From: Gemmatimonas sp. | GTDB lineage: Bacteria; Gemmatimonadota; Gemmatimonadetes; Gemmatimonadales; Gemmatimonadaceae | Assembly (NCBI GenBank): GCA_031414535.1 | Contig: JANNVQ010000011.1 | Span: 1 to 64,000, forward strand | DNA: 64,000 bases | Direction: 5' to 3' | Part shown: one piece after another, positions 24,442-40,093 of the stretch | Layout: each line of letters begins with the position of its first letter | Position numbering within the stretch: position 1 is the first letter of the stretch | Translations under genes and position numbers: made by a program | Notes under the pieces: generated by a model | The model's database searches: none | What the model was told of the DNA's origin: nothing | What the model saw: the letters and a program-made list of their open reading frames with translations, nothing else

Positions 24442-24463
24442 GGCATCTTGCAAGTAAGATGCC
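24442..24463. promoter_or_regulatory. Palindrome at the start of the cusCBA-like operon
   Basis: GGCATCTT-GCAAGT-AAGATGCC, perfect 8-bp arms. Confidence 0.4.
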
Positions 24464-25736
24464 TACGGCGACGATGACACGAGGATTTGGTCGCAGCGCG
24501 TTGCTGGTCTGCGCGATTGCGACATCCTTCTGGCCGTTACTGGCTCCGGCGCAGACGCAGGCCGTAATCGGGCCCCAGCTCAGTTTGGAAGATGCAGTCA
24601 GGATGGCGAGCGAGCGAAGAGCCGAGATTGAGGCCGCGCGTTCGCGTGTGCGCGCCGCTGAGGCCCGGCCCAGCATTGTCTCCGCCCTTGAAGACCCGAT
24701 GCTCGCACCCTCCATCGACCATCTGCCGTTCATGATGAGCGGCGCGGATGTGAGTCTCGCGTTCGAGCAACGCATCCCGCTGTCGGGTATTCGCGGCAAT
24801 CGGCGGGCATCGGCGTTCGCGGATCTCGAGCGGCTTCGTGCAGATGCGGTGCGCACAAGGCTAGACGTGGAAGTCGAGGCGGCGACGGCGTTCCTGATGT
24901 TGCAGGAGCGTCGTCGGACGGCGGCATTGGTTGCTGAGCAACTCGTGTTCGCGCTCGACGTCGTGACGGTTACGAATGCGCGCTACGCGAGCGGCACGGC
25001 GCCGCAGTCGGACGTACTCCGCGCCGAGGTCGAAGTGGCTCGGCTCGATGCGTTCGCAAAAGCTTTGGTCAGCGAAGTGCGAGGTGCCGAGGCGATGTTG
25101 AACACGAGCCTGGCCCGCGACGCGGACCTCGCCGTGCCAACGCTGGTGCCGCCGACATTCGCGCAGCCGATTCCATCGTGGCCAGATGTCAAGCGGGCGC
25201 TCGTCTCGAGACCGGAGCTGGCGGGAGGACGCGCCGAGATTGCACGCGCAGACGCGGAGCTACAAGTGATGCGCGCGATGAATCGTCCGATGGCGACGAT
25301 TCGCACCGGGCCGGCCTCTACCATGGCTGAGGGCGAAGGCTGGATGGCGATGATTGGCGTCAGCTTGCCGATCTGGCGCGGGGCGCGGCGCGCACGGGTC
25401 GGTGAAGCCGAGGCGATGCGCGCGATGTCCGAAGCGGACCTACGGGCCATGACCCGGATGATCGAGGGTGACGCCGCCGGCGCCGTCAGCCAACTGCAAG
25501 CCGCGCACGACCGGCAACTTGCACTTCGAGATGATGTGCTGCCCCGTGCGCGCATGGTAATCGAGCCCGTGGTCGCGGATTATGCCGCAGGGCGTCTGCC
25601 ACTCGTGAGCGTGCTCGGAGCGGTGCAGGCGCTCTGGTCGGTGCAGGCGGAGCTGATCAACGCCGAGTTGCAGCTAGGTATCGCGTGGGTCCGTATGGCG
25701 CGCGCGATTGGATCCTACTCCCGGATTAGCGAATGA
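24459..25736 (+). CDS. TolC-family outer-membrane factor of a heavy-metal RND system (CusC-like)
   Basis: LSLEDAV, ARYASGTAPQSDVLRAEVE, GVSLPIW; first gene of the efflux operon; start may be 24474. Confidence 0.85.
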   Translation: MPTATMTRGFGRSALLVCAIATSFWPLLAPAQTQAVIGPQLSLEDAVRMASERRAEIEAARSRVRAAEARPSIVSALEDPMLAPSIDHLPFMMSGADVSLAFEQRIPLSGIRGNRRASAFADLERLRADAVRTRLDVEVEAATAFLMLQERRRTAALVAEQLVFALDVVTVTNARYASGTAPQSDVLRAEVEVARLDAFAKALVSEVRGAEAMLNTSLARDADLAVPTLVPPTFAQPIPSWPDVKRALVSRPELAGGRAEIARADAELQVMRAMNRPMATIRTGPASTMAEGEGWMAMIGVSLPIWRGARRARVGEAEAMRAMSEADLRAMTRMIEGDAAGAVSQLQAAHDRQLALRDDVLPRARMVIEPVVADYAAGRLPLVSVLGAVQALWSVQAELINAELQLGIAWVRMARAIGSYSRISE

Positions 25737-26956
25737 CTCTCTCCGCGCGTCTGCGACGCATCGCGTTGCCAATCCTCTCCGCCTCGCTTACTGCGGTGTT
25801 GCTGATTGGATTCGTGATGGTGCAGCGATCCCGCGAGGCGTGGCCATTCTCGCCGCGCCCACCCGTACCAATCGCCGAGCGTGACGCAGTGGCGACAAGT
25901 GACTCGATGGATATGAGTGGGGAGGCGCCCCCCGCTGGAAGAGTACCGATTGACGTCGAAGCGGCGATGCTCCAAACGCTCGGCGTCCGAGTCGAAGCGG
26001 TCCGCCGCGAAGCCCTCGTGCAGGAGCTGCGCGTCGTGGCTACAGTCGCACCGGATGAGTCGAGAATCTCGCTGGTCCACACGCGAGTGGCGGGCTGGAT
26101 TGAACAACTGGATATCAATACCACCGGCGAGATGGTCGCAGTGGGTCAGCCGCTCGCGCGGATTTTCTCGCAGGAGCTGCTATCGTCCCAAACGGAGTAC
26201 CTGGCCGCGCGCAAGATGACGGCGACGTCTGGGATTACGAGCGTTGTGGTGGAGAGTGGTCGCAACCGACTGCTGGTGTTGGGGATGGCTCCGTCGGAGA
26301 TTGACGCGATTGAGCGGACGGGCGAACCGCAGCGCCTGGTCACCGTGGTCGCGCCGAGGCGCGGCGTGGTTGTGTACAGAGGCGTCACGGTGGGCACATC
26401 GGTCGATCCCTCGACAACGTTGATTACCATCGCCGATTTGTCGCAGGTGTGGATTGTAGCAGAGGTTCCGGAGGCGCACATGGCGTCGGTGCGCGTGGGA
26501 ATGCGTGCGCGACTTGATTTCCCGGGCTCTGGGCGTCCGGTGTTCGCCGGCCGCGTCGATTTCGTCTATCCGACACTCAGCGAGCGCACGCGCACGCTGC
26601 GCGTACGACTCTCGGCGGCCAATCCAGGAGGCGAGCTCCGACCGGGCCTCTTCGGGAGCGCGGTGTTCGAATCGAATGGACGAGAGGTGACGACGGTCTC
26701 ACGCAATGCCGTGGTCAACACCGGTGTGCAACAGCATGTCTTCGTCGTCGTCGGCAATCGGTTCGAACCGCGCACGGTCACACTTGGCGTCCAGCTCGCT
26801 GATCGCGTGGAGATTCGCAGCGGACTGACGGTTGGTGAGCAGGTTGTGACATCGGGTGTGTTTCTGCTTGACTCAGAGAGTCGACTGCGAGCTGCTGGTA
26901 GTGCTGGTGGTGGTGGTGCTGCTGCTGGAGGCCACAGTGGCCACAGCCCGAAGTAG
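25733..26956 (+). CDS. cusB: RND periplasmic adaptor, CusB family
   Basis: RVAGWIEQL, IFSQELLSSQ, ADLSQVW, FVYPTLSERTRT, LRPG, GVFLLDSESRL; ATGA overlap; Gly/His tail GGHSGHSPK. Confidence 0.88.
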   Translation: MTLSARLRRIALPILSASLTAVLLIGFVMVQRSREAWPFSPRPPVPIAERDAVATSDSMDMSGEAPPAGRVPIDVEAAMLQTLGVRVEAVRREALVQELRVVATVAPDESRISLVHTRVAGWIEQLDINTTGEMVAVGQPLARIFSQELLSSQTEYLAARKMTATSGITSVVVESGRNRLLVLGMAPSEIDAIERTGEPQRLVTVVAPRRGVVVYRGVTVGTSVDPSTTLITIADLSQVWIVAEVPEAHMASVRVGMRARLDFPGSGRPVFAGRVDFVYPTLSERTRTLRVRLSAANPGGELRPGLFGSAVFESNGREVTTVSRNAVVNTGVQQHVFVVVGNRFEPRTVTLGVQLADRVEIRSGLTVGEQVVTSGVFLLDSESRLRAAGSAGGGGAAAGGHSGHSPK

Positions 26957-26962
26957 CCGCAC

Positions 26963-29900
26963 ATGATTGAGCGCATCATCGAGTTCTCGGTCCGGCGCAA
27001 GTGGCTGGTGTTCGGGGTGGTGCTGGCCCTTGCGGGGTGGGCCGTGGAGTCTATCCGCCGGACGCCGCTGGATGCGTTGCCAGATCTCTCCGATCCGCAG
27101 GTCATCATCTATACGGAGTGGATGGGGCGGAGCCCGGATCTGATCGAGGACCAGATCACCTATCCCCTCGTTCGGGCGTTGCAGAGCACACCGGGCATCA
27201 AGACCGTGCGCGGATACTCGATGTTCGGCATGAGTTTCAGCTACGCCATCTTTGAGGACGGCACAGACATTTATTGGGCGCGCACGCGAGTGCTTGAGCA
27301 ACTGGGGCGCGTGCAACAACTCTTGCCACCCGATGTATCGCCGACGCTCGGGCCTGATGCCAGTGGCTTGGGATGGATCTATCAGTACGTCTTGAAGGAC
27401 AGCAGCGGGCGACTTGATCTCGCGGAGCTGCGCGCACTGCAGGACTTTACCGTGCGTCCAGCGCTTCAAGCGGTTTCAGGTGTTGCTGAGGTCGCGTCCA
27501 TTGGCGGATTCGAACGACAGTACCAAATCGTGATTGACCCCGCGCGTCTGGTGGGATTTGGACTCACGGTAGGCGACATCACGCGCGCGGTGCGCGACGC
27601 CAACGCGGAAGTAGGGGCACGAGTGCTCGAGATGGCCGGTCGCGAGTATGTCCTGCGCGGACGCGGCTACGTGAAAGATTTGGCCGACGTTGAGCAGAGC
27701 GTCGTCGCGGTAGGCGCCGGCGGCACCCCGATTCGGCTCGGTGACGTTGCAACCGTGGGCTTCGGTCCGGAGATCCGGCGCGGGGCCGCGGACTGGAACG
27801 GTACCGGTGAAGCGGTGGGCGGCATCGTAGTGATGCGAATCGGATCGAACGCGCTGCAAGTGATTCAGGCCTTGCAGGTCGAGATCGCCACGCTACAGCT
27901 CCCGGACGGCGTCAGCCTCATTCCCACGTACGACCGGTCGGAACTGATTCTGGGGTCCGTGAGCACGTTGACCAAGACGCTGATCCTACAAGCGATCGTC
28001 GTGACAATCATTTGTCTTGTCTTCCTGTTCCACGCGCGGTCGGCGGCGGTCGTGCTCATCGTGCTCCCGTTGTCCGTGCTGCTGTCGTTCATCGCCATGC
28101 GCTACATGGGGCTCTCGTCGAACATCATGTCGCTTGGCGGCATCGCGATTGCCATTGGCGAGATGGCCGACGCGGTCATTGTGCTCATTGAGAACGCGCA
28201 TGTGCGACTCGCGGCGGCGGCTCCCGGAGCGAATCGCCAGCGCGTGATTGTGGACGCCTGCAAGGAAGTCGGTCGGCCAATCTTCTTCTCTTTGTTGCTG
28301 ATCACCATCAGCTTCCTGCCAATCTTTACGCTGGCTGGTCAGGCGGGGCGCCTCTTCATGCCGCTCGCGTATACGAAGACCTTCGCGATGTTCACCGCCG
28401 CGATGCTTTCCATCACGCTCGCACCTCCGCTGATGGTGCTCCTGCTGCGCGGCAAGTTTCGCACGGAGGCGACCAATCCCGTCAGCCGGATGCTCGGTGC
28501 GGTGTACCGGCCCATTGCGGTGTTCGTTGTTCGTTCGCGGATTCTCGTGATTGCCGGTGCAGCAGTGCTCATGGTCGCGACCGTGCCAATCTTCCTGCGA
28601 CTCGGCTCGGAGTTCATGCCGCCGCTCGACGAGGGCGCGCTACTCGTGATGCCCACTACGTTTCCGGGAATCTCCATCGAGGAAGCGCGGCGGGCCTTGG
28701 TCGCGCAGGATCGCATCATCATGGGATTCCCGCAGGTTGCGTCGGTGCACGGAAAAGTGGGGCGCGCCGAGACGGCGACCGATCCGGCGCAGTTGGATAT
28801 GATTGAATCGGTGATCACGCTGCACCCCCGCGCGGAGTGGCCTGATACGTTCACGGCGCGCTGGTATAGCTCCGGCGCGCCTGAGTGGACGAAAGGCCCG
28901 CTGCGCCTCGTGTGGCCTGAGCAGCGGGCACTCACGTTGACCGAACTCTCGCGTGACCTCGACGCAGCGTTGCGCATGCCTGGCTACCAGATGGCAATCG
29001 CGCCGCCGATCCGCACGCGGATTGACATGCTCTCAACCGGCGTGCGGACGCCCGTGGGCATCAAGGTGTTCGGGAGCGATCTGAACGAGATTGAACGCAT
29101 CAGCGTGGAGCTCGAGGGCATGCTGCGCCAAGTGCCCGGAACGCGCAGCACGTTCGCTGAACGGCAAACTGGTCGCGAGTACATCGACATCGTCCCGAAC
29201 CGCGAGGTGATTGCGCGCTACGGTCTCACGGTGCGAGATGTGCAGGACGTGGTCGAAGCCGCGGTGGGCGGGATGCCGGTATCGACAGCCATCGCCGGGC
29301 GGTCGCGCTTCTCGATCAACGTGCGCTACGCGGCCGATCAGCGCTCTGACCCCGAGGCACTGCGTCGCATTCCCGTGCGGGTACAGGCGACCGCGAGCGT
29401 CGGTGGCTACGACACTGGCGCGCCAGGTACAGGCGCGAGCACCGCCGGCGCCGGCGCGGCTTTGGGAGGTGCCGGCGGTGCCGCAGGCGGTATGAGCTCG
29501 ATGGGCGGTGGATCATCGAGTGCGGCGCCTTCCTCAGGCGGAGGATCCGCCGGCACGGCTGCGCCACCGATGGGCGGACTCGCTTCCTCGCCGGATCTCA
29601 TGGAACGGTGGCGCCAGCCCGGCGCGGCGGTTCCGCTCGGCGAACTTGCCGAGGTGCGCGTCACGACGGGTCCGCCGATGATCAAGGACGAGAACGGCGT
29701 GCTGGTCGGATACGTGTTCGCAGACATCAATCAAGCCCAGCGCGACCTTGGCGGATGGGTGGACGACGCCAAGGCACTCGTGGCATCTCAACTCACGATG
29801 CCTGCGGGATACCGCCTGCAGTGGACCGGGCAGTACGAGTTCCTCGCCGAGATGGAAGCGCGGCTGCGCTACGTCATCCCGCTCACGCTCGTGCTGGTCG

Positions 29901-30397
29901 TCGGCCTGCTCTACCTCGCCGTGCGTGGATGGCCGCAGACCTTTCTCGTGTTGGCCAGTCTTCCATTCGCCGTGGCCGGAAGCGTGTGGCTCCTCGCGTT
30001 CATGGACTACAATCTTTCTACCGCGGTGTGGGTAGGCATCATCGCGGTGGCTGGCGTTGCAGCGGGGACGGGCATCGTGATGGTGGTCTACCTCGATGAG
30101 GCATTCGAGCGGTACCTGCGTGAGGGTCGCATACAGAAACCCGAGGACGTGGATGCGGCGGTGGTCGAAGGCGCGTCGGCGCGTGTGCGGCCGCTGGTGA
30201 TGACTGTGGCCACGACCGTGTTTGGGTTGCTCCCGCTCCTCTGGGAGTCCGGTGTCGGTGCTGACGTCTCCGCGCGCACGGCGGCACCCGTGGTCGGTGG
30301 CCTGTGGTCGTGCATGGTGCTGACGCTGCTCGTCCTCCCTGCGGCGTACGCAACGTGGCGCCGGCATCAAGTGCGTCGGTCAGTGGCTCCGGCGTGA
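26963..30397 (+). CDS. cusA: Heavy-metal efflux RND transporter, CusA/SilA type
   Basis: PLDALPDLSDPQVII, LGPDASGLGWIYQY, NIMSLGGIAIAIG; Met triad equivalents LVMPTT, QLDMIES, RIDMLSTG. Confidence 0.92.
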   Translation: MIERIIEFSVRRKWLVFGVVLALAGWAVESIRRTPLDALPDLSDPQVIIYTEWMGRSPDLIEDQITYPLVRALQSTPGIKTVRGYSMFGMSFSYAIFEDGTDIYWARTRVLEQLGRVQQLLPPDVSPTLGPDASGLGWIYQYVLKDSSGRLDLAELRALQDFTVRPALQAVSGVAEVASIGGFERQYQIVIDPARLVGFGLTVGDITRAVRDANAEVGARVLEMAGREYVLRGRGYVKDLADVEQSVVAVGAGGTPIRLGDVATVGFGPEIRRGAADWNGTGEAVGGIVVMRIGSNALQVIQALQVEIATLQLPDGVSLIPTYDRSELILGSVSTLTKTLILQAIVVTIICLVFLFHARSAAVVLIVLPLSVLLSFIAMRYMGLSSNIMSLGGIAIAIGEMADAVIVLIENAHVRLAAAAPGANRQRVIVDACKEVGRPIFFSLLLITISFLPIFTLAGQAGRLFMPLAYTKTFAMFTAAMLSITLAPPLMVLLLRGKFRTEATNPVSRMLGAVYRPIAVFVVRSRILVIAGAAVLMVATVPIFLRLGSEFMPPLDEGALLVMPTTFPGISIEEARRALVAQDRIIMGFPQVASVHGKVGRAETATDPAQLDMIESVITLHPRAEWPDTFTARWYSSGAPEWTKGPLRLVWPEQRALTLTELSRDLDAALRMPGYQMAIAPPIRTRIDMLSTGVRTPVGIKVFGSDLNEIERISVELEGMLRQVPGTRSTFAERQTGREYIDIVPNREVIARYGLTVRDVQDVVEAAVGGMPVSTAIAGRSRFSINVRYAADQRSDPEALRRIPVRVQATASVGGYDTGAPGTGASTAGAGAALGGAGGAAGGMSSMGGGSSSAAPSSGGGSAGTAAPPMGGLASSPDLMERWRQPGAAVPLGELAEVRVTTGPPMIKDENGVLVGYVFADINQAQRDLGGWVDDAKALVASQLTMPAGYRLQWTGQYEFLAEMEARLRYVIPLTLVLVVGLLYLAVRGWPQTFLVLASLPFAVAGSVWLLAFMDYNLSTAVWVGIIAVAGVAAGTGIVMVVYLDEAFERYLREGRIQKPEDVDAAVVEGASARVRPLVMTVATTVFGLLPLLWESGVGADVSARTAAPVVGGLWSCMVLTLLVLPAAYATWRRHQVRRSVAPA

Positions 30398-32850
30398 CGA
30401 CAGCGCCGGAAGCGGGGCTCACCTCTGCAGAAGCAGAGCGTAGACTGGCGGAGTCTGGCCCCAACGAGATTGAGCGCGAGGCCGCGAGCACGCGGTGGAG
30501 CCAGTTCGCGCATCAGTTCTCGAGCCCGGTGGTGTGGCTCCTCTTGGGAGCCGGTGTGCTCTCGGCCGCGGTCGGCGAAGGGCTCGATGCAATCGTGATC
30601 AGCGCGATTGTGCTCGTCAATGCGGGGATCGGCTACATACAGGAGCACCGCGCGGAGCGCGCGGTTACGGCGCTGCGTGCGATGACAGCGCCGCAAGCTC
30701 GAGTCCTCCGGGACGGGCATAGTGTCATGCTACCGTCCGAGGCCATCGTGGCAGGGGATCTGCTCGTGCTCGAAGCGGGCGACGTTGTTGCCGCGGACGC
30801 TCGACTTCGGACCGCGAACGCGTTGACGGCGAATGAGGCGTCGCTCACGGGTGAGAGCGCTCCGGCCGAGAAGAAAACGGAGGCGACCCCGGAGAACACT
30901 CCACTCGCGGATCGTCACGACTTCGTCTTCATGGGCACCGCGATCGCGACGGGCAGCGCGCTTGCTGAGGTCACAGCGACCGGGATGAAGTCCGAGCTCG
31001 GGAAGATTGCGCACTTGCTGGTGACGGCGGAGGAAACGGCGACTCCGTTGCAACAGCATCTGGCTCGGGTTAGCCGGACGCTATTGATCATCTGCGGCGG
31101 ACTCGTGGCGCTGGTCGCCCTCGTGGGGTTCATGCGCGGTTGGCCGCTGCTAGAGGTCCTCATGGCGGCTGTCTCGCTCGCTGTTGCTGCGGTACCCGAG
31201 GGATTGCCGGCGGTCGTGACCATCGCGCTCGCCGTCGGGGTGCAACGGATGGCGGTGCGGAAAGTTCTCGTTCGTCGTTTGCCCGCAGTCGAGACGCTCG
31301 GATGCGCGACCGTGATTTGCACTGACAAAACCGGAACGCTCACAACCGGCGTCATGCGGGTACGCGAGTTGTCGGGGCCAGATCACGCGAAGCTCCTCCA
31401 TGCGGGCGCTGCCTGCGCCGACGCGGAGATGGCGCGCGATGGTCGGCCTGGAGTTGGGGATCCCACGGAGTTGGCAATCCTAATCGCGGCGGCCGAGCAC
31501 GGGATAGACCGCATTCAGATTGAAGCGACCAATCGTCGAGTCACGGTGGTCCCGTTTGATGCGGTGCGGAAGATTATGTCAATCGAGCGCGCCGACGGTC
31601 ACGTGTATATCAAGGGCGCGGTCGAGAGCGTGCTCCCACTGTGCGCAGCCGGGATTGAGGGCGCGGTCGAGACAAACACGCAGATGGCGGGGCGCGGGCT
31701 GCGGGTCCTCGCGGTCGCCGTTGCGCCCGCGGGACCGGAAATGCGCGCAACGCTGCTAGGGCTCATTGGGATTGCAGACCCGCCTCGCACTGAGGCGATT
31801 GCAGCGATTGCTGCGGCTCGCGCAGCTGGAATCACTACGGTGATGATCACGGGCGACCACATAGAGACAGCTCGCGCGATCGCAAAGGAGTTAGGCATTC
31901 TGGCTGACGGCGATGCGGCGAACGACCTCGTCCACGCACGTGCGACGCCTGAGGACAAAATCAGAATCGTGCGCGAGTGGAAGGCACGGGGCGCGATCGT
32001 GGCGATGACTGGCGACGGCGTGAACGACGCCCCAGCACTCCGCGAAGCGCATGTCGGCATCGCGATGGGTCTTACTGGAACCGAAGTTACGCGCGAAGCG
32101 TCGGACATCGTGCTCGCCGACGACAACTTCGCGAGCATCGTCGAAGGTATCCGCGAGGGTCGCACAATCTTCGACAATATCCAGAAGACCCTCGTGTACC
32201 TGTTGTCGGGGAACGCGGCGGAGCTCATTGTGATGCTCGTGGCAGCCTTGGCGGGTTGGCCATTGCCCCTCCTTCCTCTGCACCTGTTGTGGATCAATGT
32301 CGTCACCGATGGCCTGCCCGCCCTCGCGCTGGTGGTTGATCCGCCGGAGGCCGACGTTCTTGGGCGGCCTCCGCGCAAACCCGATGCTCCGATGCTGGGT
32401 CGCATGCAGTGGCAGTTCATCGTCGCCACCGGTGTACTCCAAGCGGCTGCGACACTCGGCGTGTACGCTTGGGCGCTGAACGCTCGCGAGCTGCCCGAAG
32501 CACGCAACCTTGCCTTCTCCGTGCTCGTCTTCGGCGAGCTGTTCCGGGCATTTGCCGCGCGCAGTCCCACGCGCCTCTTTTGGGAAGTGGGCGTCTTCAC
32601 CAACCCGCGACTAGTGGCCGTCGTTCTGTTCTCCGTCGTGATGCAGCTTGGGATTCATTACATCCCAGTGTTCCAGCGCGTGTTCGACGTGGGGAGCCTT
32701 TCGCTCGCCGACTGCGTGCTTACGCTGGTGGTTGCGCTGGTGCCGGTGAGCATAATCGAGATGTCAAAGCTCTTGCGTCGCCTGCGGCCCGGCACCAGTC
32801 CGCAGGCGCCTGACTCCGCGTCCATCCGTACTGGAACTCAGTCCCGCTGA
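30394..32850 (+). CDS. P-type cation-transporting ATPase, P2A (Ca2+-ATPase-like)
   Basis: LTGES, VPEGL, DKTGTLT, TGD, GDGVND, LWINVVTDGLPALAL; GTG start overlaps the cusA stop (GTGA); no CPC/CPH motif or metal-binding domain. Confidence 0.88.
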   Translation: MTTAPEAGLTSAEAERRLAESGPNEIEREAASTRWSQFAHQFSSPVVWLLLGAGVLSAAVGEGLDAIVISAIVLVNAGIGYIQEHRAERAVTALRAMTAPQARVLRDGHSVMLPSEAIVAGDLLVLEAGDVVAADARLRTANALTANEASLTGESAPAEKKTEATPENTPLADRHDFVFMGTAIATGSALAEVTATGMKSELGKIAHLLVTAEETATPLQQHLARVSRTLLIICGGLVALVALVGFMRGWPLLEVLMAAVSLAVAAVPEGLPAVVTIALAVGVQRMAVRKVLVRRLPAVETLGCATVICTDKTGTLTTGVMRVRELSGPDHAKLLHAGAACADAEMARDGRPGVGDPTELAILIAAAEHGIDRIQIEATNRRVTVVPFDAVRKIMSIERADGHVYIKGAVESVLPLCAAGIEGAVETNTQMAGRGLRVLAVAVAPAGPEMRATLLGLIGIADPPRTEAIAAIAAARAAGITTVMITGDHIETARAIAKELGILADGDAANDLVHARATPEDKIRIVREWKARGAIVAMTGDGVNDAPALREAHVGIAMGLTGTEVTREASDIVLADDNFASIVEGIREGRTIFDNIQKTLVYLLSGNAAELIVMLVAALAGWPLPLLPLHLLWINVVTDGLPALALVVDPPEADVLGRPPRKPDAPMLGRMQWQFIVATGVLQAAATLGVYAWALNARELPEARNLAFSVLVFGELFRAFAARSPTRLFWEVGVFTNPRLVAVVLFSVVMQLGIHYIPVFQRVFDVGSLSLADCVLTLVVALVPVSIIEMSKLLRRLRPGTSPQAPDSASIRTGTQSR

Positions 32851-33728
32851 CGCTGTGAGGGATTGTCAACTGCAAAGACAAGGGTGGCCCAATGCGTGTC
32901 CCAGTCCGCGCCGGATCCAGCCGCAGCCTGCGTCACATGAATCGTGCGGACGCTCCACAGTCCTAGCCGACTCAGCGGCACGCGGACAATGCCACCTGCG
33001 TCCGGCGTATAGCTGCTCGGCAAAGTCGCTCCGTTATGGCCGGCGTGCCCAGCACCGCCGGGAGTATCGCGGTCGATGCTGAGATCAACAACGTCTGCGT
33101 GCACGGGAATTCCCGTCAACGGTGCGCCGCGGAACAGGAGGCGCAGTTCAAGCGTGTCGCCGACGCGCAGTGAAGCCGGGTCGCGCAGAGGAACGAACTC
33201 GATGACGTGCCCTGCAGGTCGCGCGAATGCGCGCCCACCACCAGCACCGACCTGCACGAGCGTCTTGGCGTACTTCGCGTAGCGCCGCGTTACGCTGTCC
33301 TTTCCGCTTAACAGCCCCTCTCGCTCCACGCGCTGCCTCGCGGCCGTTGCACCCTCAGCGTCTAGGTACTCACGGAATCCATTGGCCGACACACGCACGC
33401 TGCGCGAGTGGAGCGAGACCGCAACAACATATTGTCCAGCGCGCGGTGGCCGATCGCGGACGAGCAGCGAGCGACCCTGGACGGAGAGGCCAGAGATTGC
33501 GACTTCGCCACTCTCGCCAATGCGCTTGGCAGATGCAACCCGGTCCACGGCAACGGCGGAGCGACTCGTCGGGAATTGGCTGCTCGTTTGACCGCGCAGC
33601 ATCACGTCCTCGCCCAGCGCGACAGAGAACGCGTTGGGGATGAGCCAGAAATCATCGGCACCGACGGCGCTGGCGCTGAGCAGGAGCGCGCCTAGCATGA
33701 ACCTAGTTCTGCGTGTCATACCTAACAT
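32838..33728 (-). CDS. DUF4198-like periplasmic protein
   Basis: Signal peptide then DFWLIP; FREYLDAEG, RYAKYAKTLV, IEFVPLRDP, DWDTHWATLVF; GHAGH insert. Confidence 0.75.
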   Translation of the reverse strand: MLGMTRRTRFMLGALLLSASAVGADDFWLIPNAFSVALGEDVMLRGQTSSQFPTSRSAVAVDRVASAKRIGESGEVAISGLSVQGRSLLVRDRPPRAGQYVVAVSLHSRSVRVSANGFREYLDAEGATAARQRVEREGLLSGKDSVTRRYAKYAKTLVQVGAGGGRAFARPAGHVIEFVPLRDPASLRVGDTLELRLLFRGAPLTGIPVHADVVDLSIDRDTPGGAGHAGHNGATLPSSYTPDAGGIVRVPLSRLGLWSVRTIHVTQAAAGSGADWDTHWATLVFAVDNPSQRQRD

Positions 33729-33729
33729 C

Positions 33730-34668
33730 CTACTCTCCTGGCATTGGTGTCGCTACGAGTACTGCGGTAGCGGTAACTACGAAGAATGCAGCGGCGAGCT
33801 CGACAAGCGACGATCGACGTAGCCTTGCGCTTGAATGCGCCTGACCGAGTACGGGAAGCACACGACGCCAATTGTACGCGCCGGTCCCAGCGGCGACCGA
33901 GAGAAGTCCCAGCTTGATTACCAGTATGCGGCCGTACTCACTCTGCCACAGTGGAGCGAATCCACCGAGGTTGCCCCACGCTGTGTAGAGTCCGGTGATT
34001 GCAAGCAGACCGGAAAATACGAGGGCCGTAGGGCTGAATGCGCGAACGAGCCCCGCGACCCGCAAATCAAAATGCGCTGAGTCGCCCTTGACCCGTCGTG
34101 CAGCGGGGATGGCCACAAGAGTCAACATCGCAAGACTCCCAACCCACCCACCGGCACCAATGAGGTGTAGCAATTGCGCCGCGACGGCGATGATTGGCGA
34201 CTCTGCTGCAGCAGGATGCCCTGAGAGGGGCTGTGAAATCGCAAAAGCGAGAATCGCCGGGGCCGCGACAAGCCAAGCAGCATTTGGCGTCCGGCGTAGT
34301 CGCGGCGCCACCCAGGTCACAACCATCGCCGCTAGCATTGCCAGCCACCAAGTGCGGCCCCAGTTGGACTTGAAGAGCAACGTCGCAAACGATTCGCGCG
34401 ACAACGTCTGCTCGCTGCCGAAGACTGCAGCGTGTTGGGCAACAAGCCGAGCGAGGGTGGCTGCGACTGCAACGAGGCCTAAGCTATCAATCCATCGCGG
34501 TAGTCGCTCGCTGACGGCGATTCGGAGTTGCGTCGCGTCGGGCCCGGCGTAACGCGCGAGTACAATCCAGCGAAGCGCGAGCGTGCCGAGCAGCCCGATG
34601 CTGCACACAGAGAGCACCGCGCGGAGGGCGACAAACGCCGGGGACTCAACACCGAACTCTGTGCCCAT
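33730..34668 (-). CDS. copD: Copper resistance protein D (inner membrane)
   Basis: Multiple TMs; SGHPAA, LHLIGAGGWVGSL, RAFS, YGRILVIKLGL, GAYNW, VEL. Confidence 0.85.
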   Translation of the reverse strand: MGTEFGVESPAFVALRAVLSVCSIGLLGTLALRWIVLARYAGPDATQLRIAVSERLPRWIDSLGLVAVAATLARLVAQHAAVFGSEQTLSRESFATLLFKSNWGRTWWLAMLAAMVVTWVAPRLRRTPNAAWLVAAPAILAFAISQPLSGHPAAAESPIIAVAAQLLHLIGAGGWVGSLAMLTLVAIPAARRVKGDSAHFDLRVAGLVRAFSPTALVFSGLLAITGLYTAWGNLGGFAPLWQSEYGRILVIKLGLLSVAAGTGAYNWRRVLPVLGQAHSSARLRRSSLVELAAAFFVVTATAVLVATPMPGE

Positions 34669-34673
34669 AAGGG

Positions 34674-35087
34674 TCAGGGTCGCGCAGGGCGGGGAGCGGC
34701 GGCGGCGGGAGATGATTGCGCGGGCAGCACGTCGAACGAATACTGACCGCGAACGGGGTGGCCGTCATCACCCGTCACCTGCCAGCGAACGGTGTATCGA
34801 CCAGGCGCGAGCGCCGTGGCGAACGTCGCGACAATTGTTTTGCTGTCGCCGGCGACCAAATGCATCGAGTCAGGGCGGACCTGCACATCTCCGCGGAGCA
34901 GCGTGACGCGTGTGAGCGCGAGGTCCAAATCTTCGTTGAAGGAGAGCGCGATCTGCCGTGGGGCGTCAGCGCGGCTGTCGGCGGCGGGCGTCGCCTTCAG
35001 AAGACGCGGATGCGCGTGGGCGGCCCTGAGCGGTACCGCGAGGCTCAGGGCGACGAGAAGCGTCAAGGCTCGGCTGTGGAATCTCAT
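34674..35087 (-). CDS. copC: Periplasmic copper-binding protein CopC (no Met-rich Cu(I) site)
   Basis: Signal ending AHA, mature N-terminal His (HPRLLKATP), LSFNE, GRYTVRWQVTGDDGHPVRG. Confidence 0.9.
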   Translation of the reverse strand: MRFHSRALTLLVALSLAVPLRAAHAHPRLLKATPAADSRADAPRQIALSFNEDLDLALTRVTLLRGDVQVRPDSMHLVAGDSKTIVATFATALAPGRYTVRWQVTGDDGHPVRGQYSFDVLPAQSSPAAAAPRPARP

Positions 35088-35107: not shown

Positions 35108-35122
35108 TTTACGCTGTGTAAA
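35108..35122. promoter_or_regulatory. Operator palindrome TTTAC-N5-GTAAA, copy 1 (upstream of copC)
   Basis: TTTACgctgtGTAAA; adjoins a minus-strand sigma70-like promoter TTGCCT(35150-35145)-N17-TATTAT(35127-35122). Confidence 0.7.
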
Positions 35123-35179: not shown

Positions 35180-36235
35180 TCAGCGCGCGCCGACGGCGTC
35201 ATCATGTGGGCACGGCGACGCCGAGTCCGAAAGTCCAAGGGTCCATCCGCGGCAAAACATGTGCGCGATGGGGAGGCTACCCGGATGATCGCAGTGCGCC
35301 GGACTGTGGCCACTGTGATTCAGCGGATCGCTCAACGGGTGCAATACCATCAACCCAGAACTCCACGTGAGCAGCAGGGCGGCTGTCGCCGCGATCAGGG
35401 AACGAGTAGACGTGTGCGATGTTGCAACCGGGTCCTCCCCCGCGAGGCGTCGGATGCGCCGCGGCAGCAGGTCAGCGCGCTGGAATCCGACGGTGGCCGC
35501 AAATGGATCGCTCCCGTTTCCGCCCAGCTTCAAGATGGCTGAGGCGAGCGGCAGGGCGAGATGCTTTGCCACTTCATCGTCGGCGGTGATCTCCACTTCG
35601 TCCTCCCAGTCGGCAGCGAGGCGACGCAGCACGGGAAGCCAGAAGAGGAGTGAGGCGAGCGCCCGTAGGCAAGCGAGACGCAGCGGGTCGCGGCGTCTCA
35701 CATGCACCATCTCGTGCGCGAGAACAGCTGTGAGTTCGTCTAGCGTCAGTCGCTCGTGCAGATCCGCCGCCACGAATACCTGCGGTGCTAGCCAACCAGA
35801 GGTGAAGGCTGGCATGGGCAGGCCACGTACAGTCCGAAGGCGCTTGACGCTGAGGCCTGCCTGTATCGAGGCTCGACCGAGCGACGAATCGCGATGTACG
35901 CGCGCCTGTGGCAGTGCTCGCATCACCGCTCTATGCCGCCACAACACGCGGCCCCGTTCGAACGCGGCGTACGCCACGCCAGCGTAAAGGAACCAGTGAG
36001 CAATCTTGTGAACGGGCTCTAGGAGTTGGTGTAGTGCCACGAGGCAGAGCATGGCGAGATGCTGTTGATCAGCGCGCAGCCATGGAACGGCGCCAAGCAC
36101 GTGATGACCCACGACCGGCGTTATCCCTAAGAGGAGCGCCGCGACGATTGCCAAGAGCAACACTCGGCGTCGCCGCTCCTCGCGGCGAATGACCGGTGGA
36201 CGGACGCCGGCACTCTGCGCCGACACTTCGGTCAT
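35180..36235 (-). CDS. M56/BlaR1-family membrane metalloprotease with His/Cys-rich C-terminal tail
   Basis: PAFTSGWLAPQV, AVLAHEMVHVRRRDPL (HExxH), LFWLP, EITADD, RIRRL; no penicillin-binding sensor domain; ATGA-coupled to blaI. Confidence 0.88.
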   Translation of the reverse strand: MTEVSAQSAGVRPPVIRREERRRRVLLLAIVAALLLGITPVVGHHVLGAVPWLRADQQHLAMLCLVALHQLLEPVHKIAHWFLYAGVAYAAFERGRVLWRHRAVMRALPQARVHRDSSLGRASIQAGLSVKRLRTVRGLPMPAFTSGWLAPQVFVAADLHERLTLDELTAVLAHEMVHVRRRDPLRLACLRALASLLFWLPVLRRLAADWEDEVEITADDEVAKHLALPLASAILKLGGNGSDPFAATVGFQRADLLPRRIRRLAGEDPVATSHTSTRSLIAATAALLLTWSSGLMVLHPLSDPLNHSGHSPAHCDHPGSLPIAHMFCRGWTLGLSDSASPCPHDDAVGAR

Positions 36236-36693
36236 CCTTCCTGTTCTCTTAGCTTGCGGCGAATCAGGCGAGCGAGTTCTGCGAGCTGTTCAGGATCGCG
36301 CTCCGCGAGGACGTCCACAATTGACGCCGTGACAGCTTCGGCGCCGAGCGAAAGAATGCCCTCGACAGCGCGCCGCGACGCTTGGGAGACGAAGTCCGAT
36401 TCGTCGAGGCGTGCGCTGAAATGCAGCCGACCACTCACGCGTGCACGCGAGAGGAATCCCTTGCGCACGAGGCGATTGAGTACCGTTGTACTGGTCAGTG
36501 GCGATACCGGATGGTCCTCGCGCAAGAGCTCGTGAATTTCACGGGCGGTAAGCGGGCCCTCGGCGTCCCAACACAGACGCATCAAGCGGGACTCCAGCTC
36601 CCCCAAGACCGTGCTGACTCCGCTTCCTGAGAGCTTCATCGTCTCAGGGAGGCGTGGAGTCTTGGGAGAGAAAATGTGACGCTTGCGCATCAC
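36232..36693 (-). CDS. BlaI/MecI/CopY-family transcriptional repressor
   Basis: LGELESRLMRLCW..PLTAREIHE..TSTTVLNRLVRKGFLSR winged helix; no C-terminal CxC motif. Confidence 0.9.
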   Translation of the reverse strand: MMRKRHIFSPKTPRLPETMKLSGSGVSTVLGELESRLMRLCWDAEGPLTAREIHELLREDHPVSPLTSTTVLNRLVRKGFLSRARVSGRLHFSARLDESDFVSQASRRAVEGILSLGAEAVTASIVDVLAERDPEQLAELARLIRRKLREQEG

Positions 36694-37229
36694 GGCATCG
36701 CCGGATCACTGGGCCGACGAGCGCGACCTGCGGTCTGCGTGAGCCGCACGATCCATCGGTTGCCACGGCGCTCAAGGATGGCCGTGCCACGACCGACAAC
36801 ATCGGCCTTTCCGTCTGGTAGGTCAGCCGAGAGGGCATAGCGATATGTCGCCCACGCGAGGTTCCCCGACACGCGCGCCTCAATCTCGAAGGGGCGATAC
36901 TTAAAGTTGCGAAAATCCTTAAGCTCAGGCGCGAGATGGTTGTCTCGGTAGTCTGTCCAGCCACGGTTCATGCCGGCGCCTTCAATGACTAGGAGGCTGT
37001 CGCCCGCGTAGATGGAGTCGAGTGCCGCGAGGTCTCCGCGTTCGGCGGCGGCGAAGAGTTCACGGATGGCGCGGACGACGGATGCAGCCTCAGCGTTGGG
37101 TGCGGCCGTCGGTGCAGTCGCCGGTGCAGTCGCTGGTGCGGGGTGTTGATGGGCCTGTGCAGCACTGCTGTTTGACAGCACGAGGCTGAACAGCGAAAGC
37201 GCAACGAAGCGACGCAGGAAGGTTTTCAT
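36690..37229 (-). CDS. Exported NTF2/SnoaL-like (DUF4440-like) protein
   Basis: Signal peptide, QAHQH, Pro/Ala/Thr linker, FAAAERGDLAALDSIY, EGAGMNRGWTDYRDNHLAPEL, TAILERRGNRWIV. Confidence 0.75.
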   Translation of the reverse strand: MKTFLRRFVALSLFSLVLSNSSAAQAHQHPAPATAPATAPTAAPNAEAASVVRAIRELFAAAERGDLAALDSIYAGDSLLVIEGAGMNRGWTDYRDNHLAPELKDFRNFKYRPFEIEARVSGNLAWATYRYALSADLPDGKADVVGRGTAILERRGNRWIVRLTQTAGRARRPSDPAMP

Positions 37230-37286: not shown

Positions 37287-37303
37287 ATTTACCCTAAGTA
37301 AAT
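37287..37303. promoter_or_regulatory. Operator palindrome copy 2 (upstream of the NTF2-blaI-blaR operon)
   Basis: ATTTACcctaaGTAAAT; overlaps minus-strand TTGCAC(37315-37310)-N18-TAAATT(37291-37286). Confidence 0.7.
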
Positions 37304-37345: not shown

Positions 37346-37362
37346 CTTTACAAAGCGTAAAG
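37346..37362. promoter_or_regulatory. Operator palindrome copy 3 (upstream of copAB)
   Basis: CTTTACaaagcGTAAAG. Confidence 0.7.
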
Positions 37363-37434
37363 CTAATGCCTATTGTTCGTCAACGCCGATGCACTTCGCG
37401 CCGAACCGCCACACGACCCTGCACCCGCCCGCCC

Positions 37435-39327
37435 GTGACTGATACCAGCATCCCAACCATCCTCTCCCGTCGTCGTTTCGTCGGCGCTGCCGCCGTCGCA
37501 GCCGTAGGGGCCGCTGCCGGTGCAGCTACGCCTGCGTCGCTGCAAGCCATGCCGGGAACTTTGATGCGCCTAGATCCTGGGCTTGGTAGGTTGTCCCCCG
37601 CACCCAACGGCGTGCGTGAGTACGATCTCACGATCGCCGAGACCACGCTGCGCGTGGATGGTCGCAATGCCCGCACCGTGACAATCAACGGCACCGTGCC
37701 CGGCCCCGTGCTGCGATTCCGTGAAGGTGAGGAGGCAGTCATTCGGGTGCGGAACACGCTCTCAGAGGATACCTCCATTCATTGGCACGGCATCCTGCTT
37801 CCGCCAAACATGGACGGCGTTCCCGGATTGAGCTTCCCGGGCATCCGTCCGGGTGAGACGTTCGAGTATCGCTTTGCGATCAAGCAAGCCGGCACCTATT
37901 GGTACCACAGTCACTCCGGATTGCAGGAGCAACTTGGGCACTACGGGGCGCTCATCATTGAGCCTGCCGAACGAACTGGGCCGATGTACGACCGCGAGCA
38001 CGCGGTGGTGCTCTCCGACTGGACCTTCGAAGATCCGTATCGTGTGCTCTCGCGGCTCAAGAAGCAGCCCGATGCCTACAACTATCAGCGCCGCACTATC
38101 GCGGACTTCTTTCGCGACGTTGCCCGCGATGGCTTCTCGGCGACGCTCAGCGATCGGACCATGTGGTCGGGCATGCGGATGAACCCCACCGATATCGCGG
38201 ATGTGACTGGGGCGACGTACAGCTACTTGCTCAACGGGCGAACGGCGGCAGAGCCGTGGTTTGGCCAGTTCGCTCCCGGTGAGCGCGTTCTTCTGCGCAT
38301 CATCAACGCCGGTGCGGGGTCGTACTTCGATGTCCGTATCCCAGGCTTGCCGATGACCGTCGTGCAGGTGAGCGGACAACCGATTGAACCCATCGAGACC
38401 GACGAGTTGCGTATCGCGCTGGCGGAGACGTATGACGTCATTGTGCAGTTGCCCGACGACCGCGCCTACACCCTCTACGCCGAAGCGATGGATCGCAGCG
38501 GGTTCACTGCGGGCACGCTGTCACCGCGAGCGGGAGCGCTGACGGAACTGCCGGCGCGCCGCCGCCGCCCCCTGCTCGAGATGAAGGACATGGGGATGGA
38601 CCATTCACAGATGGCGGGCATGGATGACGAGATGGATCATGCCGCGATGGGCCACGAGATGCCCAGCTCCGCTCCGGCAGCCGCGGCGGCGGATGACGAG
38701 CACGCCGGTCACGATATGTCGTCGAGTGCCACCGCGATGACGCTCCGTGCGCCCGGCACGCTGCCACCCGAGACGATGCACGGGTCTGAGACGCACGGCG
38801 TCGGAAACGCGATGGTCCCGATGAGCACGTCGAGCCGCTTGTCGGAGCCAGGCTCTGGGCTTGGCGAAGATGGACGACGCGTACTGCTCTACTCGGCGCT
38901 ACGCGCGCTGGCTCCGTGGCCGGAGTTGCACGCCCCGACCCGTGAGATTGAATTGCACCTCACGGGCAATATGGAGCGCTTCACTTGGGGCATTGATGGC
39001 ATTCCGCACGATCGTGCAACGCCCATTGAACTGGCCTACGGTGAACGCATTCGCCTCACGTTAGTGAATGACTCGATGATGAATCACCCAATGCATTTGC
39101 ACGGAATGTGGATGGTGTTGGAGAACGGGCAGGGTGAGCACAGTCCTCGCGTTCATACGGTAAACGTGAAGCCCGCAGAGCGTGTGTCGCTGTTACTGAC
39201 GGCGGATGCGCCCGGACGTTGGGCGTTCCATTGCCACGTGCTCTACCATATGGAAGTCGGAATGTTTCGCGAGGTGCGTGTGAGTGCGATGCCAAGTGGT
39301 CACGAGGGTCATCACAATGCAGACTGA
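37435..39327 (+). CDS. copA: Copper-resistance multicopper oxidase, CopA/PcoA family (Tat-exported)
   Basis: SRRRFV twin-arginine signal, IHWHG, YWYHSH, HPMHLHG, FHCHVLYHM; Met/His-rich insert; GTG start inferred (37366 is an alternative). Confidence 0.95.
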   Translation: MTDTSIPTILSRRRFVGAAAVAAVGAAAGAATPASLQAMPGTLMRLDPGLGRLSPAPNGVREYDLTIAETTLRVDGRNARTVTINGTVPGPVLRFREGEEAVIRVRNTLSEDTSIHWHGILLPPNMDGVPGLSFPGIRPGETFEYRFAIKQAGTYWYHSHSGLQEQLGHYGALIIEPAERTGPMYDREHAVVLSDWTFEDPYRVLSRLKKQPDAYNYQRRTIADFFRDVARDGFSATLSDRTMWSGMRMNPTDIADVTGATYSYLLNGRTAAEPWFGQFAPGERVLLRIINAGAGSYFDVRIPGLPMTVVQVSGQPIEPIETDELRIALAETYDVIVQLPDDRAYTLYAEAMDRSGFTAGTLSPRAGALTELPARRRRPLLEMKDMGMDHSQMAGMDDEMDHAAMGHEMPSSAPAAAAADDEHAGHDMSSSATAMTLRAPGTLPPETMHGSETHGVGNAMVPMSTSSRLSEPGSGLGEDGRRVLLYSALRALAPWPELHAPTREIELHLTGNMERFTWGIDGIPHDRATPIELAYGERIRLTLVNDSMMNHPMHLHGMWMVLENGQGEHSPRVHTVNVKPAERVSLLLTADAPGRWAFHCHVLYHMEVGMFREVRVSAMPSGHEGHHNAD

Positions 39328-40093
39328 TTGCGTCGTGCGATTCCTTTCGGCGTCGCTGTTGGTGGGCGCGGCCGTGGTTGGCAGCGGATCGTCCCTAGCT
39401 GCCCAGGTGATGGACACCGTCACGCACTCCGGCTCTCACAAGATGGGCTGGAGTCGAGAGACCTTCGTGCTCTCGGAGGTTCTCGAGTATGCGCCGTCTG
39501 TGGCTGCGCGTGCAGTGAACTACGATCTGGTGGCGTGGACGGGCGGCGCATCGAACCGCGTGTGGGCCAAGGCGGACGGTGGCGTCGCGACAATCGGGCG
39601 CGATAGGCACGGTGAGTATCAGTTGCTCTATGGGCGCTTGGTTTCGCCGTGGTGGGACGCGCAGGTCGGTGTTCGGGTGGATGAACTTGCGGAGTCGAGT
39701 GGCTCCGCGTCGCGGGCGGGTGCTGTGGTGGCGTTGCAAGGGCTCGCTCCGGGTTGGTTCGAGCTTGAGCCCTCGCTGTTTGTGACCACCGACGGAAACG
39801 TCTCGCTCGACTTCACAGGGTCCTACGATCTGTTCCTGACGCAACGCATTGTGTTGCAACCGCGACTCGAGTCTACGCTCGCGTTGCGCGACGAGGCCGA
39901 TTTCGGCGTCGGGCGAGGACTTGTGAACACGTCCTTCGGATTGCGGACGCGCGTTGAGTTGTGGCGGGAGTTCGCTCCGTACGTCGGAGTGGTATGGGAT
40001 CGCGCCTACGGACGCTCGGCGCGGTTCGCCCAGTTGGACGGAAAGTCGGCACGCGAGGTGCGACTCGTCGCTGGTCTGAGGCTGTGGCGCTAA
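39317..40093 (+). CDS. copB: Copper resistance outer-membrane protein CopB/PcoB
   Basis: WTGGASNRVWAKADG, SPWWDAQVGVR, QGLAPGWFE, YDLFLTQRIVLQP, REFAPYVGV, AGLRLWR; overlaps the copA end. Confidence 0.9.
   Translation: MQTDCVVRFLSASLLVGAAVVGSGSSLAAQVMDTVTHSGSHKMGWSRETFVLSEVLEYAPSVAARAVNYDLVAWTGGASNRVWAKADGGVATIGRDRHGEYQLLYGRLVSPWWDAQVGVRVDELAESSGSASRAGAVVALQGLAPGWFELEPSLFVTTDGNVSLDFTGSYDLFLTQRIVLQPRLESTLALRDEADFGVGRGLVNTSFGLRTRVELWREFAPYVGVVWDRAYGRSARFAQLDGKSAREVRLVAGLRLWR

Follow-up and report, generated by a model that had tools for sequence, protein, structure and literature searches.

What controls the copper-resistance genes of a Gemmatimonas sp. in which copA–copB and copC–copD surround genes for a BlaI/MecI-family repressor and a BlaR1-like membrane metalloprotease of the M56 family? 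We analyzed a 64,000-nt stretch of its contig C11 (the window) together with the rest of the 3,695,498-bp genome; feature coordinates are collected in Table 1. A first-pass annotation had named the coupled BlaI/M56 pair as the only regulators of the cluster, and searches of C11 with queries from this genome found no CsoR, MerR, response-regulator or kinase homologs (other regulator families were not searched). On the minus strand, snoaL, blaI and the M56 gene are followed by copC, copD and a DUF4198 gene, with copA–copB divergent, and the blaI and M56 genes overlap by 4 nt. That the pair is a real, conserved regulatory unit is well supported, and we consider it fairly probable that it is a PetRP-like switch for periplasmic copper defense, in which copper would trigger proteolysis of the repressor.

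We examined the distribution of the protease by a profile search of 401 genomes of the phylum, with five candidates scored per genome. It returned 37 places in 35 genomes at E-values of 2e-38 or better, followed by a gap to 2e-16, and 33 of these 35 genomes belong to the window's family. Setting aside the window's genome and G157 left 35 loci for study, and 20 of the 41 weaker M56 places served as controls; neighboring genes within about 10 kb were found by tblastn with queries from the clade loci. At least one of CopC, CopD, a multicopper oxidase, CopB and a P1B ATPase was found near the protease at 30 of the 35 clade loci and at none of the 20 controls, a comparison weakened by the fact that kin genomes are not independent samples and that most control loci come from other families. 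CopC (23 loci), multicopper oxidase (22), CopD (21) and P1B ATPase (17) were the most frequent core copper genes, with CopB at 6; other neighbors included SnoaL (19), DUF4198 (9), CusA (7) and DUF305 (7) proteins. BlaI adjoins the protease in 34 of 35 loci, the exception ending at a contig end. Other regulators were rare (response regulator, kinase, MerR and ArsR at 2 loci each, CsoR at 1), and no beta-lactamase occurred among the annotated neighbors. Neighboring P-type ATPases carry a CPH motif in 14 of 18 cases and a YN motif in all 18, which we take to mark them as Cu-type. In a quick version of the tree that did not include PetP, the 22 clade rows are monophyletic (SH-aLRT 99) and sister to 18 rows of shorter Cys/His-tailed proteases; by sequence, the protease defines a Gemmatimonadota clade.

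The palindromic boxes are the predicted link between the pair and its targets. Three exact copies of the TTTAC-N5-GTAAA box named in the first-pass annotation lie in the window, where 0.13 would be expected even with one mismatch and none of 100 shuffles reached three. They are the only TTAC-N5-GTAA copies in the genome, which has eight sites at ≤1 mismatch. A sigma-70 scan returned three promoter-like sites against 0.4 expected; box 3 overlaps the predicted copAB −35 element (37347–37352), and box 1 shares an edge with the predicted copC −10 element (35127–35122, minus strand); both assignable boxes in the window lie at repressing positions. We rejected the view that the palindrome is merely a −35 plus a −10 element: a spacer of 5 nt separates its halves, and one-directional promoters carry the complete palindrome as well.

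The same boxes recur across the clade. Exact copies number 34 in 20 of the 35 loci, against none in the controls and none in five shuffles; allowing one mismatch gives 66 in 26 loci, again none in the controls, and 0–2 in shuffles. With four more loci added, 70 of 71 sites were intergenic by our own gene calls, mostly beside snoaL, blaI, copC/D and multicopper oxidase genes. Within the family, 26 of the 32 pair-bearing genomes carry an exact box, as do 8 of the 61 that lack the pair; for a reversed-pattern control the counts are 9 of 32 and 19 of 61 (again, kin are not independent). CopD itself is found in 278 of the 401 genomes, most of which lack the pair. At 20 copD loci from pair-less genomes of the family there was no exact box, no blaI, no clade protease and no consistent CopRS; the box therefore follows the regulator and not the target. 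Box distribution and neighborhoods together strongly support, at the level of sequence comparison, the earlier proposal that the pair controls copAB and copCD through the boxes. Twelve further boxes lie at a distance from the pair in pair-bearing genomes: seven precede or lie within copper-type clusters, two are coding, one is beside a TetR-like gene (L234) and two are unexplained. Boxed cus-type operons occur in L115, L120 and L235.

Two boxed loci deserve mention in their own right. In G099 (L243, G099:C96), boxes accompany snoaL, copC, copD and a blaI remnant disrupted by a frameshift, and a protease gene is absent; this locus has apparently lost the regulator pair, which would leave its operon unrepressed. 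The other seven of the eight pair-less boxed genomes of the family have no copper gene near the box. At L237:145–600 (minus strand), on a contig other than that of the pair, a boxed gene encodes a small protein with repeated Cys-x3-Cys spacing and no Pfam family, which presumably resembles the four-helix copper-storage proteins.

As first described, the protease keeps HExxH and has no beta-lactam sensor. It matches PF05569 over the cut-off (E = 2e-11), gave no match to the transpeptidase domain or to blaR1_generic, and has only 53 residues after its last helix. Both gluzincin motifs are present (H174-E-x-x-H178 and E215-x-x-x-D219), and H174/E175/H178, E215, D219 and R260 are invariant across a 110-sequence alignment (A2). 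A first AlphaFold model, built from 46 sequences, had low confidence in the loop and tail; the model from the 110-sequence alignment reached a mean pLDDT of 87.5, and 85 over tail residues 321–330. The top fold match of these models was Staphylococcus aureus BlaR1 (Foldseek E = 6e-5), and alignment to BlaR1 8EXQ placed model residues 11–259 on chain residues 26–292 (Z 15.7, rmsd 5.8, 219 aligned) at a structural-alignment identity of about 12%; searches of the ESM Atlas returned generic M56/M48 clusters only. Because the match begins at BlaR1 residue 26, the protease would lack helix 1 and have its N-terminus inside, with residues 43–65 as the equivalent of EL1. BlaR1 itself is N-out, and its EL1 (residues 56–96), between helices 2 and 3, transmits the signal (PMC9834060). 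In the structural alignment to 8EXR_A the last matched pair is residue 250 with 283, so that F251 (93 of 109 homologs) falls on the BlaR1 autocleavage residue Phe284 and G250-F251 is a putative autocleavage site. Over 110 sequences, Lys plus Arg per 100 residues come to 24 before TM1 (the first transmembrane helix), 2 in the loop, 12–18 across the protease domain and 5.5 for the tail. We predict a BlaR1 membrane fold with a cytoplasmic active site and the C-terminus outside.

The repressor matches PF03965 (E = 3e-18) and could be aligned to MecI. As first described, it lacks the C-terminal Cys motif of CopY: the CopY model TIGR02698 gives it 34 bits, far below the cut-off of 122, and none of 38 aligned repressors has a Cys in its last 25 residues. 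BlaI is cut at Asn101-Phe102, with an almost invariant Phe (PMC9834060). The position of the scissile Phe of MecI (Asn-Phe) corresponds to Ile125, giving a predicted scissile site at S124-I125, and the P1′ residue is hydrophobic in all 37 repressors compared (16 Phe, 15 Leu, 5 Ile and 1 Val). Pairwise distances among repressors and among proteases correlate (Spearman 0.61 over 35 pairs, which are not independent of one another).

Where copper might be sensed was addressed by counting residue conservation in 56 near-full-length representatives of 31–57% identity. The tail after the last hydrophobic helix contains, as originally counted, seven His (299, 307, 310, 314, 317, 325 and 344) and three Cys (315, 328 and 342), but two of these His are not conserved (H307 and H310, 3 of 56 each); the other residues are kept in 41 (H299), 36 (H314), 50 (C315), 34 (H317), 46 (H325), 50 (C328), 45 (C342) and 42 (H344) homologs. 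Tails average 6.9 His and 3.0 Cys per 53 residues, 13% His against a background of 2.4% (Cys background 0.7%), and the tail pattern is matched by 29 of 39 locus-derived proteases. Conserved and predicted to be extracytoplasmic, the tail gives no sign of either feature that would have spoken against the proposed relay, a cytoplasmic position or poor conservation. The first loop and following helix, which had likewise been described as rich in His and Cys, carry H44 (45 of 56), H45 (42), H59 (40), C64 (52), H69 (37), H76 (50) and H80 (51), and by their spacing H69, H76 and H80 share one helical face. Since PetP's proposed ligands sit in that loop and EL1 transmits the BlaR1 signal, we weighted loop and helix face equally with the tail, and the EL1-like loop is an equally strong sensor candidate. 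The tail on which the first-pass annotation had settled thus stands as a candidate but not as the only or clearly the main one. A copper site would most likely be drawn from H44/H45/H59, the H69/H76/H80 face and tail H299/H314/H317/H325/H344. Given their predicted periplasmic position, Cys 64, 315, 328 and 342 are more probably paired in structural disulfides than bound to metal. A predicted complex of tail 299–351 with membrane part 10–298 and Zn scored 0.00 with an uncertain partner fold and was not used either way.

From the observed anatomy and co-occurrence we infer the following order of events. The repressor, bound to the three boxes, would keep copAB, copCD-DUF4198 and its own operon off; binding of this repressor to these boxes is very likely. 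Periplasmic copper would then bind the conserved outward His of the protease, and copper as the directly bound ligand is probable, at a confidence below that for the neighboring steps. Binding would activate the cytoplasmic HExxH site, and the repressor would be cut near S124-I125, a step we consider likely by analogy with BlaR1 and PetP. Cleavage would induce copAB, copCD-DUF4198 and the pair itself. A separate CsoR operon would cover cytoplasmic copper, giving a two-compartment design. A more ambitious proposal makes the clade a distinct periplasmic copper receptor, unrelated to the Met site of PetP, in which the EL1-like loop, one side of the transmembrane helix after it and a tail stapled by disulfides form a His site that switches a whole resistance regulon by proteolysis; we rate it slightly less likely than not.

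Several observations weigh against a copper-triggered proteolytic switch, in addition to the kinship of the sampled genomes. Core copper genes are absent near the protease in 5 of 35 loci (L129, L130, L134, L137 and L142), of which four are shortened by contig ends and L137 has a cus-type pump. Genes with thiol or other-metal functions also neighbor the protease, namely CcdA/TlpA in 3 loci, CzcA-like pumps in 8 and HupE/UreJ in 4. No box is found even at one mismatch in 9 of 35 loci, an exact box is missing in 6 of 32 pair-bearing genomes, and the window's own cusCBA operon (24459–30397) has no upstream box within two mismatches. At the level of residues, Phe occupies P1′ in no more than 16 of 37 repressors, and Ile in the one from this window, against the almost invariant Phe of BlaI; M62 is kept in 0 of 56 homologs and loops average 0.36 Met, so that PetP's proposed Met ligands are absent; and the tail pattern fails in 10 of 39 proteases, through truncation (one), altered spacing or degeneration (several: L141, L147 and L148). 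Genus g90, from another family, has up to 27 similar palindromes in genomes without the pair.

The main rival keeps the same switch and regulon but lets the protease read the periplasmic thiol-disulfide state through its four Cys, with copper acting indirectly by oxidizing or mispairing them. These Cys are kept in 45–52 of 56 homologs, as well as or better than most His, many sister-clade proteases keep the loop Cys and Cys tails without the His pattern (judged by eye), and the CcdA/TlpA operons lie, in L131 and L132, within gene runs that start at boxed intergenic regions. Copper genes nevertheless outnumber thiol genes 30 to 3 among the 35 loci, and a pure redox sensor would have no need of about 11 conserved outward His, which leaves this explanation unlikely. 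A sensor of broad specificity, responding to Ag, Zn, Co and Ni besides Cu and serving metal-resistance islands, would account for the CzcA-like RND pumps and HupE/UreJ genes, for ArsR at two loci and for the ZnuA/ABC-3 genes directly upstream in L137, and His/Cys ligands suit Zn and Ni too. The neighbors of the boxes are mostly snoaL, blaI, copC/D, multicopper oxidase and outer-membrane partner genes, however, and no box at ≤1 mismatch stands directly before the HupE-linked pumps in L128, L140 and L142; we regard such breadth as distinctly improbable.

A pair that tunes copper supply or use rather than resistance, with CopCD as importer and a PetR-like factor acting as both activator and repressor, is more improbable again. 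CopCD is reported as an uptake route in some bacteria, CopD is widespread in the phylum without the pair, and PetR both activates and represses, but TIGR01480 CopA, CopB, P1B ATPases and cus-type pumps are among the boxed partners, and the assignable boxes in the window both lie at repressing positions. Slightly further down the scale, and very improbable, is the view that the boxes are sites of some other factor, with the pair carried along as a passenger of copper islands. The g90 palindromes and the remote box beside the TetR-like gene at L234 are compatible with it; against it, the box tracks the pair within the family, is absent from the pair-less copD loci and often stands upstream of blaI itself, and each of the other regulator families tested is present at no more than 2 of 35 loci. 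The g90 sites have features of their own: G192, G064 and other genomes of this genus (L219–L230) carry 10–27 scattered TTTACA-N3-TGTAAA copies each, with no control matches and no clade protease, and of 12 sites inspected one lies just downstream of copD and none with another copper gene. They are probably the operator of another, global regulator.

The first-pass annotation had further suggested that the pair acts in place of CopRS/CusRS. The functional analogy holds, and no CusR/CopR or CusS/CopS model scored above its cut-off in this genome; the best two-component pair reached 245.7 of 279.2 and 226.2 of 292.6 bits and lies on C19 beside genes that are tolQ/exbD-like by sequence. Kinase/regulator pairs at L203 and L205 are this same housekeeping-type pair. 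A literal replacement of CopRS was rejected, given that the 20 pair-less copD loci show no consistent CopRS, and the unboxed cusCBA operon also stands outside it. The pair is not, by sequence, the cell's only copper regulator: at G000:C14:264899–268110, copZ-like and cupredoxin-like genes and a P1B ATPase gene (copA; CPC, YN and MAFSS motifs) form one operon that ends with csoR and has no box within two mismatches. This operon is likely the cytoplasmic copper arm. Upstream of it lie G/C-tract palindromes, which we take to resemble CsoR operators. Elsewhere in the genome, a small cluster of MerR, thioredoxin-like and membrane-protein genes (G000:C3:3136–4219) resembles a minimal mercury-resistance operon.

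Among described systems, PetRP comes closest. In Synechocystis sp. PCC 6803, PetP degrades PetR in a copper-dependent manner (bioRxiv 10.1101/2020.07.31.226407; PMC7896320), and PetRP (Slr0240/Slr0241) controls only petE, petJ, slr0601 and slr0602, copM induction being independent of it (10.1101/2020.07.31.226407). Both systems combine a BlaI-family factor lacking the CopY Cu site with an overlapping gene for a sensor-less M48/M56 protease in a copper context, both operators have an AC-N5-GT core, and the ligands proposed for PetP are in the extracytoplasmic loop equivalent to BlaR1 EL1/L2. They differ in the full operator (TTTAC-N5-GTAAA here, GAC-N5-GTC for PetR) and in their genes, since the predicted targets here are resistance genes and the neighbors cop genes, not the petE/petJ regulon. 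In PetP the loop follows two N-terminal helices and contains two conserved Met; the present protease has a single helix, a His6/Cys loop segment lacking conserved Met, and a conserved tail, ~50 residues long, that bears His and three Cys.

With BlaR1/BlaI and MecR1/MecI of S. aureus (PMC9834060; PDB 8EXP–8EXT, 1SD6), the pair shares the membrane and protease fold, the HExxH and ExxxD motifs, an F251 aligned with Phe284, a conserved Arg in the next helix, the repressor fold and a hydrophobic P1′; unlike BlaR1, it has no penicillin-binding domain and no alpha1 helix, and is predicted N-in rather than N-out. CopY/TcrY of Enterococcus and Streptococcus are likewise BlaI/MecI-type winged-helix repressors of copper genes with palindromic operators (PMC10141476, PMC11672702), but CopY detects cytoplasmic Cu(I) directly by way of its C-terminal CxC(x4CxC) motif and binds TACA-N2-TGTA, whereas the repressor here is protease-coupled, has no C-terminal Cys and is predicted to use a TAC-N5-GTA spacing. 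CenIR of Clostridioides difficile and other sensor-less BlaIR pairs also link a BlaI to an M56 protease with a short non-transpeptidase C-terminal region; the CenIR regulon concerns the envelope, in contrast to the conserved metal-type tail pattern and predicted copper regulon found here (PMC13492132). According to the same source, which does not mention copper, only about 6% of about 15,000 M56 proteins have a beta-lactam sensor. For BlaR homologs in marine heterotrophs, PMC10141476 states that the role "remains to be elucidated". CopRS/CusRS resemble the pair in predicted periplasmic copper sensing, in induction of copABCD-type genes and in operating alongside a separate cytoplasmic sensor, and differ in that the pair involves no kinase or phosphorylation and is predicted to derepress irreversibly by proteolysis, with the window's cusCBA unboxed. 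The pair is a member of the BlaI/M56 superfamily outside BlaR1, CopY and PetRP in the strict sense, with a mode of action most likely similar to that of PetRP. We found no description of a BlaI/M56 pair controlling a copper-resistance operon in the literature searched, which covered subscription papers sparsely.

Table 1. Coordinates of the regulator pair, its predicted targets and its boxes within the window
Feature	Position	Strand	Basis
M56 membrane metalloprotease, BlaR1-like, sensor-less, 351 aa	35180..36235	(-)	Pfam PF05569, BlaR1 fold match, conservation
BlaI/MecI-family repressor without CopY Cys tail	36232..36693	(-)	PF03965
SnoaL/DUF4440-like protein, first gene of snoaL-blaI-M56 operon	36690..37229	(-)	Pfam
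copC, predicted target	34674..35087	(-)	PF04234
copD, predicted target	33730..34668	(-)	PF05425
DUF4198 protein, predicted target	32838..33728	(-)	PF10670
copA multicopper oxidase, predicted target	37366..39327	(+)	TIGR01480 over cut-off
copB outer-membrane protein, predicted target	39284..40093	(+)	PF05275
HExxH zinc motif (HEMVH), protease residues 174-178	35702..35716	(-)	invariant in 110-sequence alignment
Protease residues 43-82: predicted outward loop and outer half of next helix, matching BlaR1 EL1 and the start of alpha3, candidate Cu site	35990..36109	(-)	
Protease residues 299-351: predicted outward His/Cys tail, pattern HP...HCxH...HxxC...CPH	35183..35341	(-)	
Box 1, upstream of copC-copD-DUF4198	35108..35122		exact TTTAC-N5-GTAAA
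Box 2, 59 nt upstream of snoaL-blaI-M56, predicted autoregulation	37288..37302		exact TTTAC-N5-GTAAA
Box 3, upstream of copAB	37347..37361		exact TTTAC-N5-GTAAA

Two gene starts in the window may differ from those listed. Because its ATG at 37366 falls within the predicted promoter, the true start of copA is likely the in-frame GTG at 37435; the start of blaI is uncertain, with an ATG at 36639 at the beginning of the conserved region. The SnoaL-like protein has a signal-peptide-like N-terminus (export judged by eye from the sequence); its homologs, present in 19 of the 35 loci and among the commonest boxed genes, are highly conserved (YRD[HN]HL.PE, GRGT and ..RARR motifs). Elsewhere in the window, cusCBA is followed by a P2A Ca-type ATPase gene (24459–32850, plus strand). 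The CusA encoded there has a long Gly/Ser/Ala-rich insertion and keeps the three Met-bearing motifs.

A scan of genome contigs with one protein gave 4 loci, and in a metagenome scan 3 of the 80 loci belonged to the clade. Copper-gene queries matched at few of 64 more distant loci (only CsoR with a P1B ATPase at L051, a weak CopD at L060 and CsoR at L042 and L068), which does not support a link between distant M56 proteins in general and copper; many of these contigs are short, and many matches are HtpX-like. The sister clade (P0188–P0227) and L040:7321–8717 comprise shorter sensor-less M56 proteins with loop Cys and Cys/His-rich tails, and in L040 the protease gene is followed by a Met/His-rich, beta-barrel-like gene. 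Plasmids of Peribacillus and Priestia carry distant pairs of BlaI and a sensor-less M56 protein with a Cys-Cys loop beside arsenic operons (L197:6546–7786 and L198:6246–7504); the neighbors in L198 also include a csoR-like regulator, copZ, a heavy-metal ATPase, ydhK and a four-helix copper-binding protein.

In about 94% of BlaR-like proteases there is no beta-lactam sensor, and their ligands cannot be predicted (PMC13492132); the way in which PetP senses copper is still only proposed. Against this background the clade comes with an operator and a regulon that are both defined, and with about fifteen conserved residues as candidate ligands, which makes sensor-less BlaR switching testable with a two-gene reporter. 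The signaling logic is already known from PetRP, which limits the surprise, yet it has so far been shown only for that cyanobacterial photosynthesis switch. If the proposed copper-triggered proteolysis is correct, it would add regulation by proteolysis to the routes to periplasmic copper resistance, provide a model of gene regulation for a little-studied phylum of soils and sediments, and yield a compact copper biosensor made of two genes. If the clade is moreover the distinct receptor suggested above, it would be a counterpart of CopRS/CusRS that needs no phosphorylation and works alongside CsoR, and the first group of sensor-less BlaR proteins for which the ligand can be predicted and the operator is mapped; the Cys/His-tailed sister clades may then be part of a wider family of envelope metal or thiol sensors.

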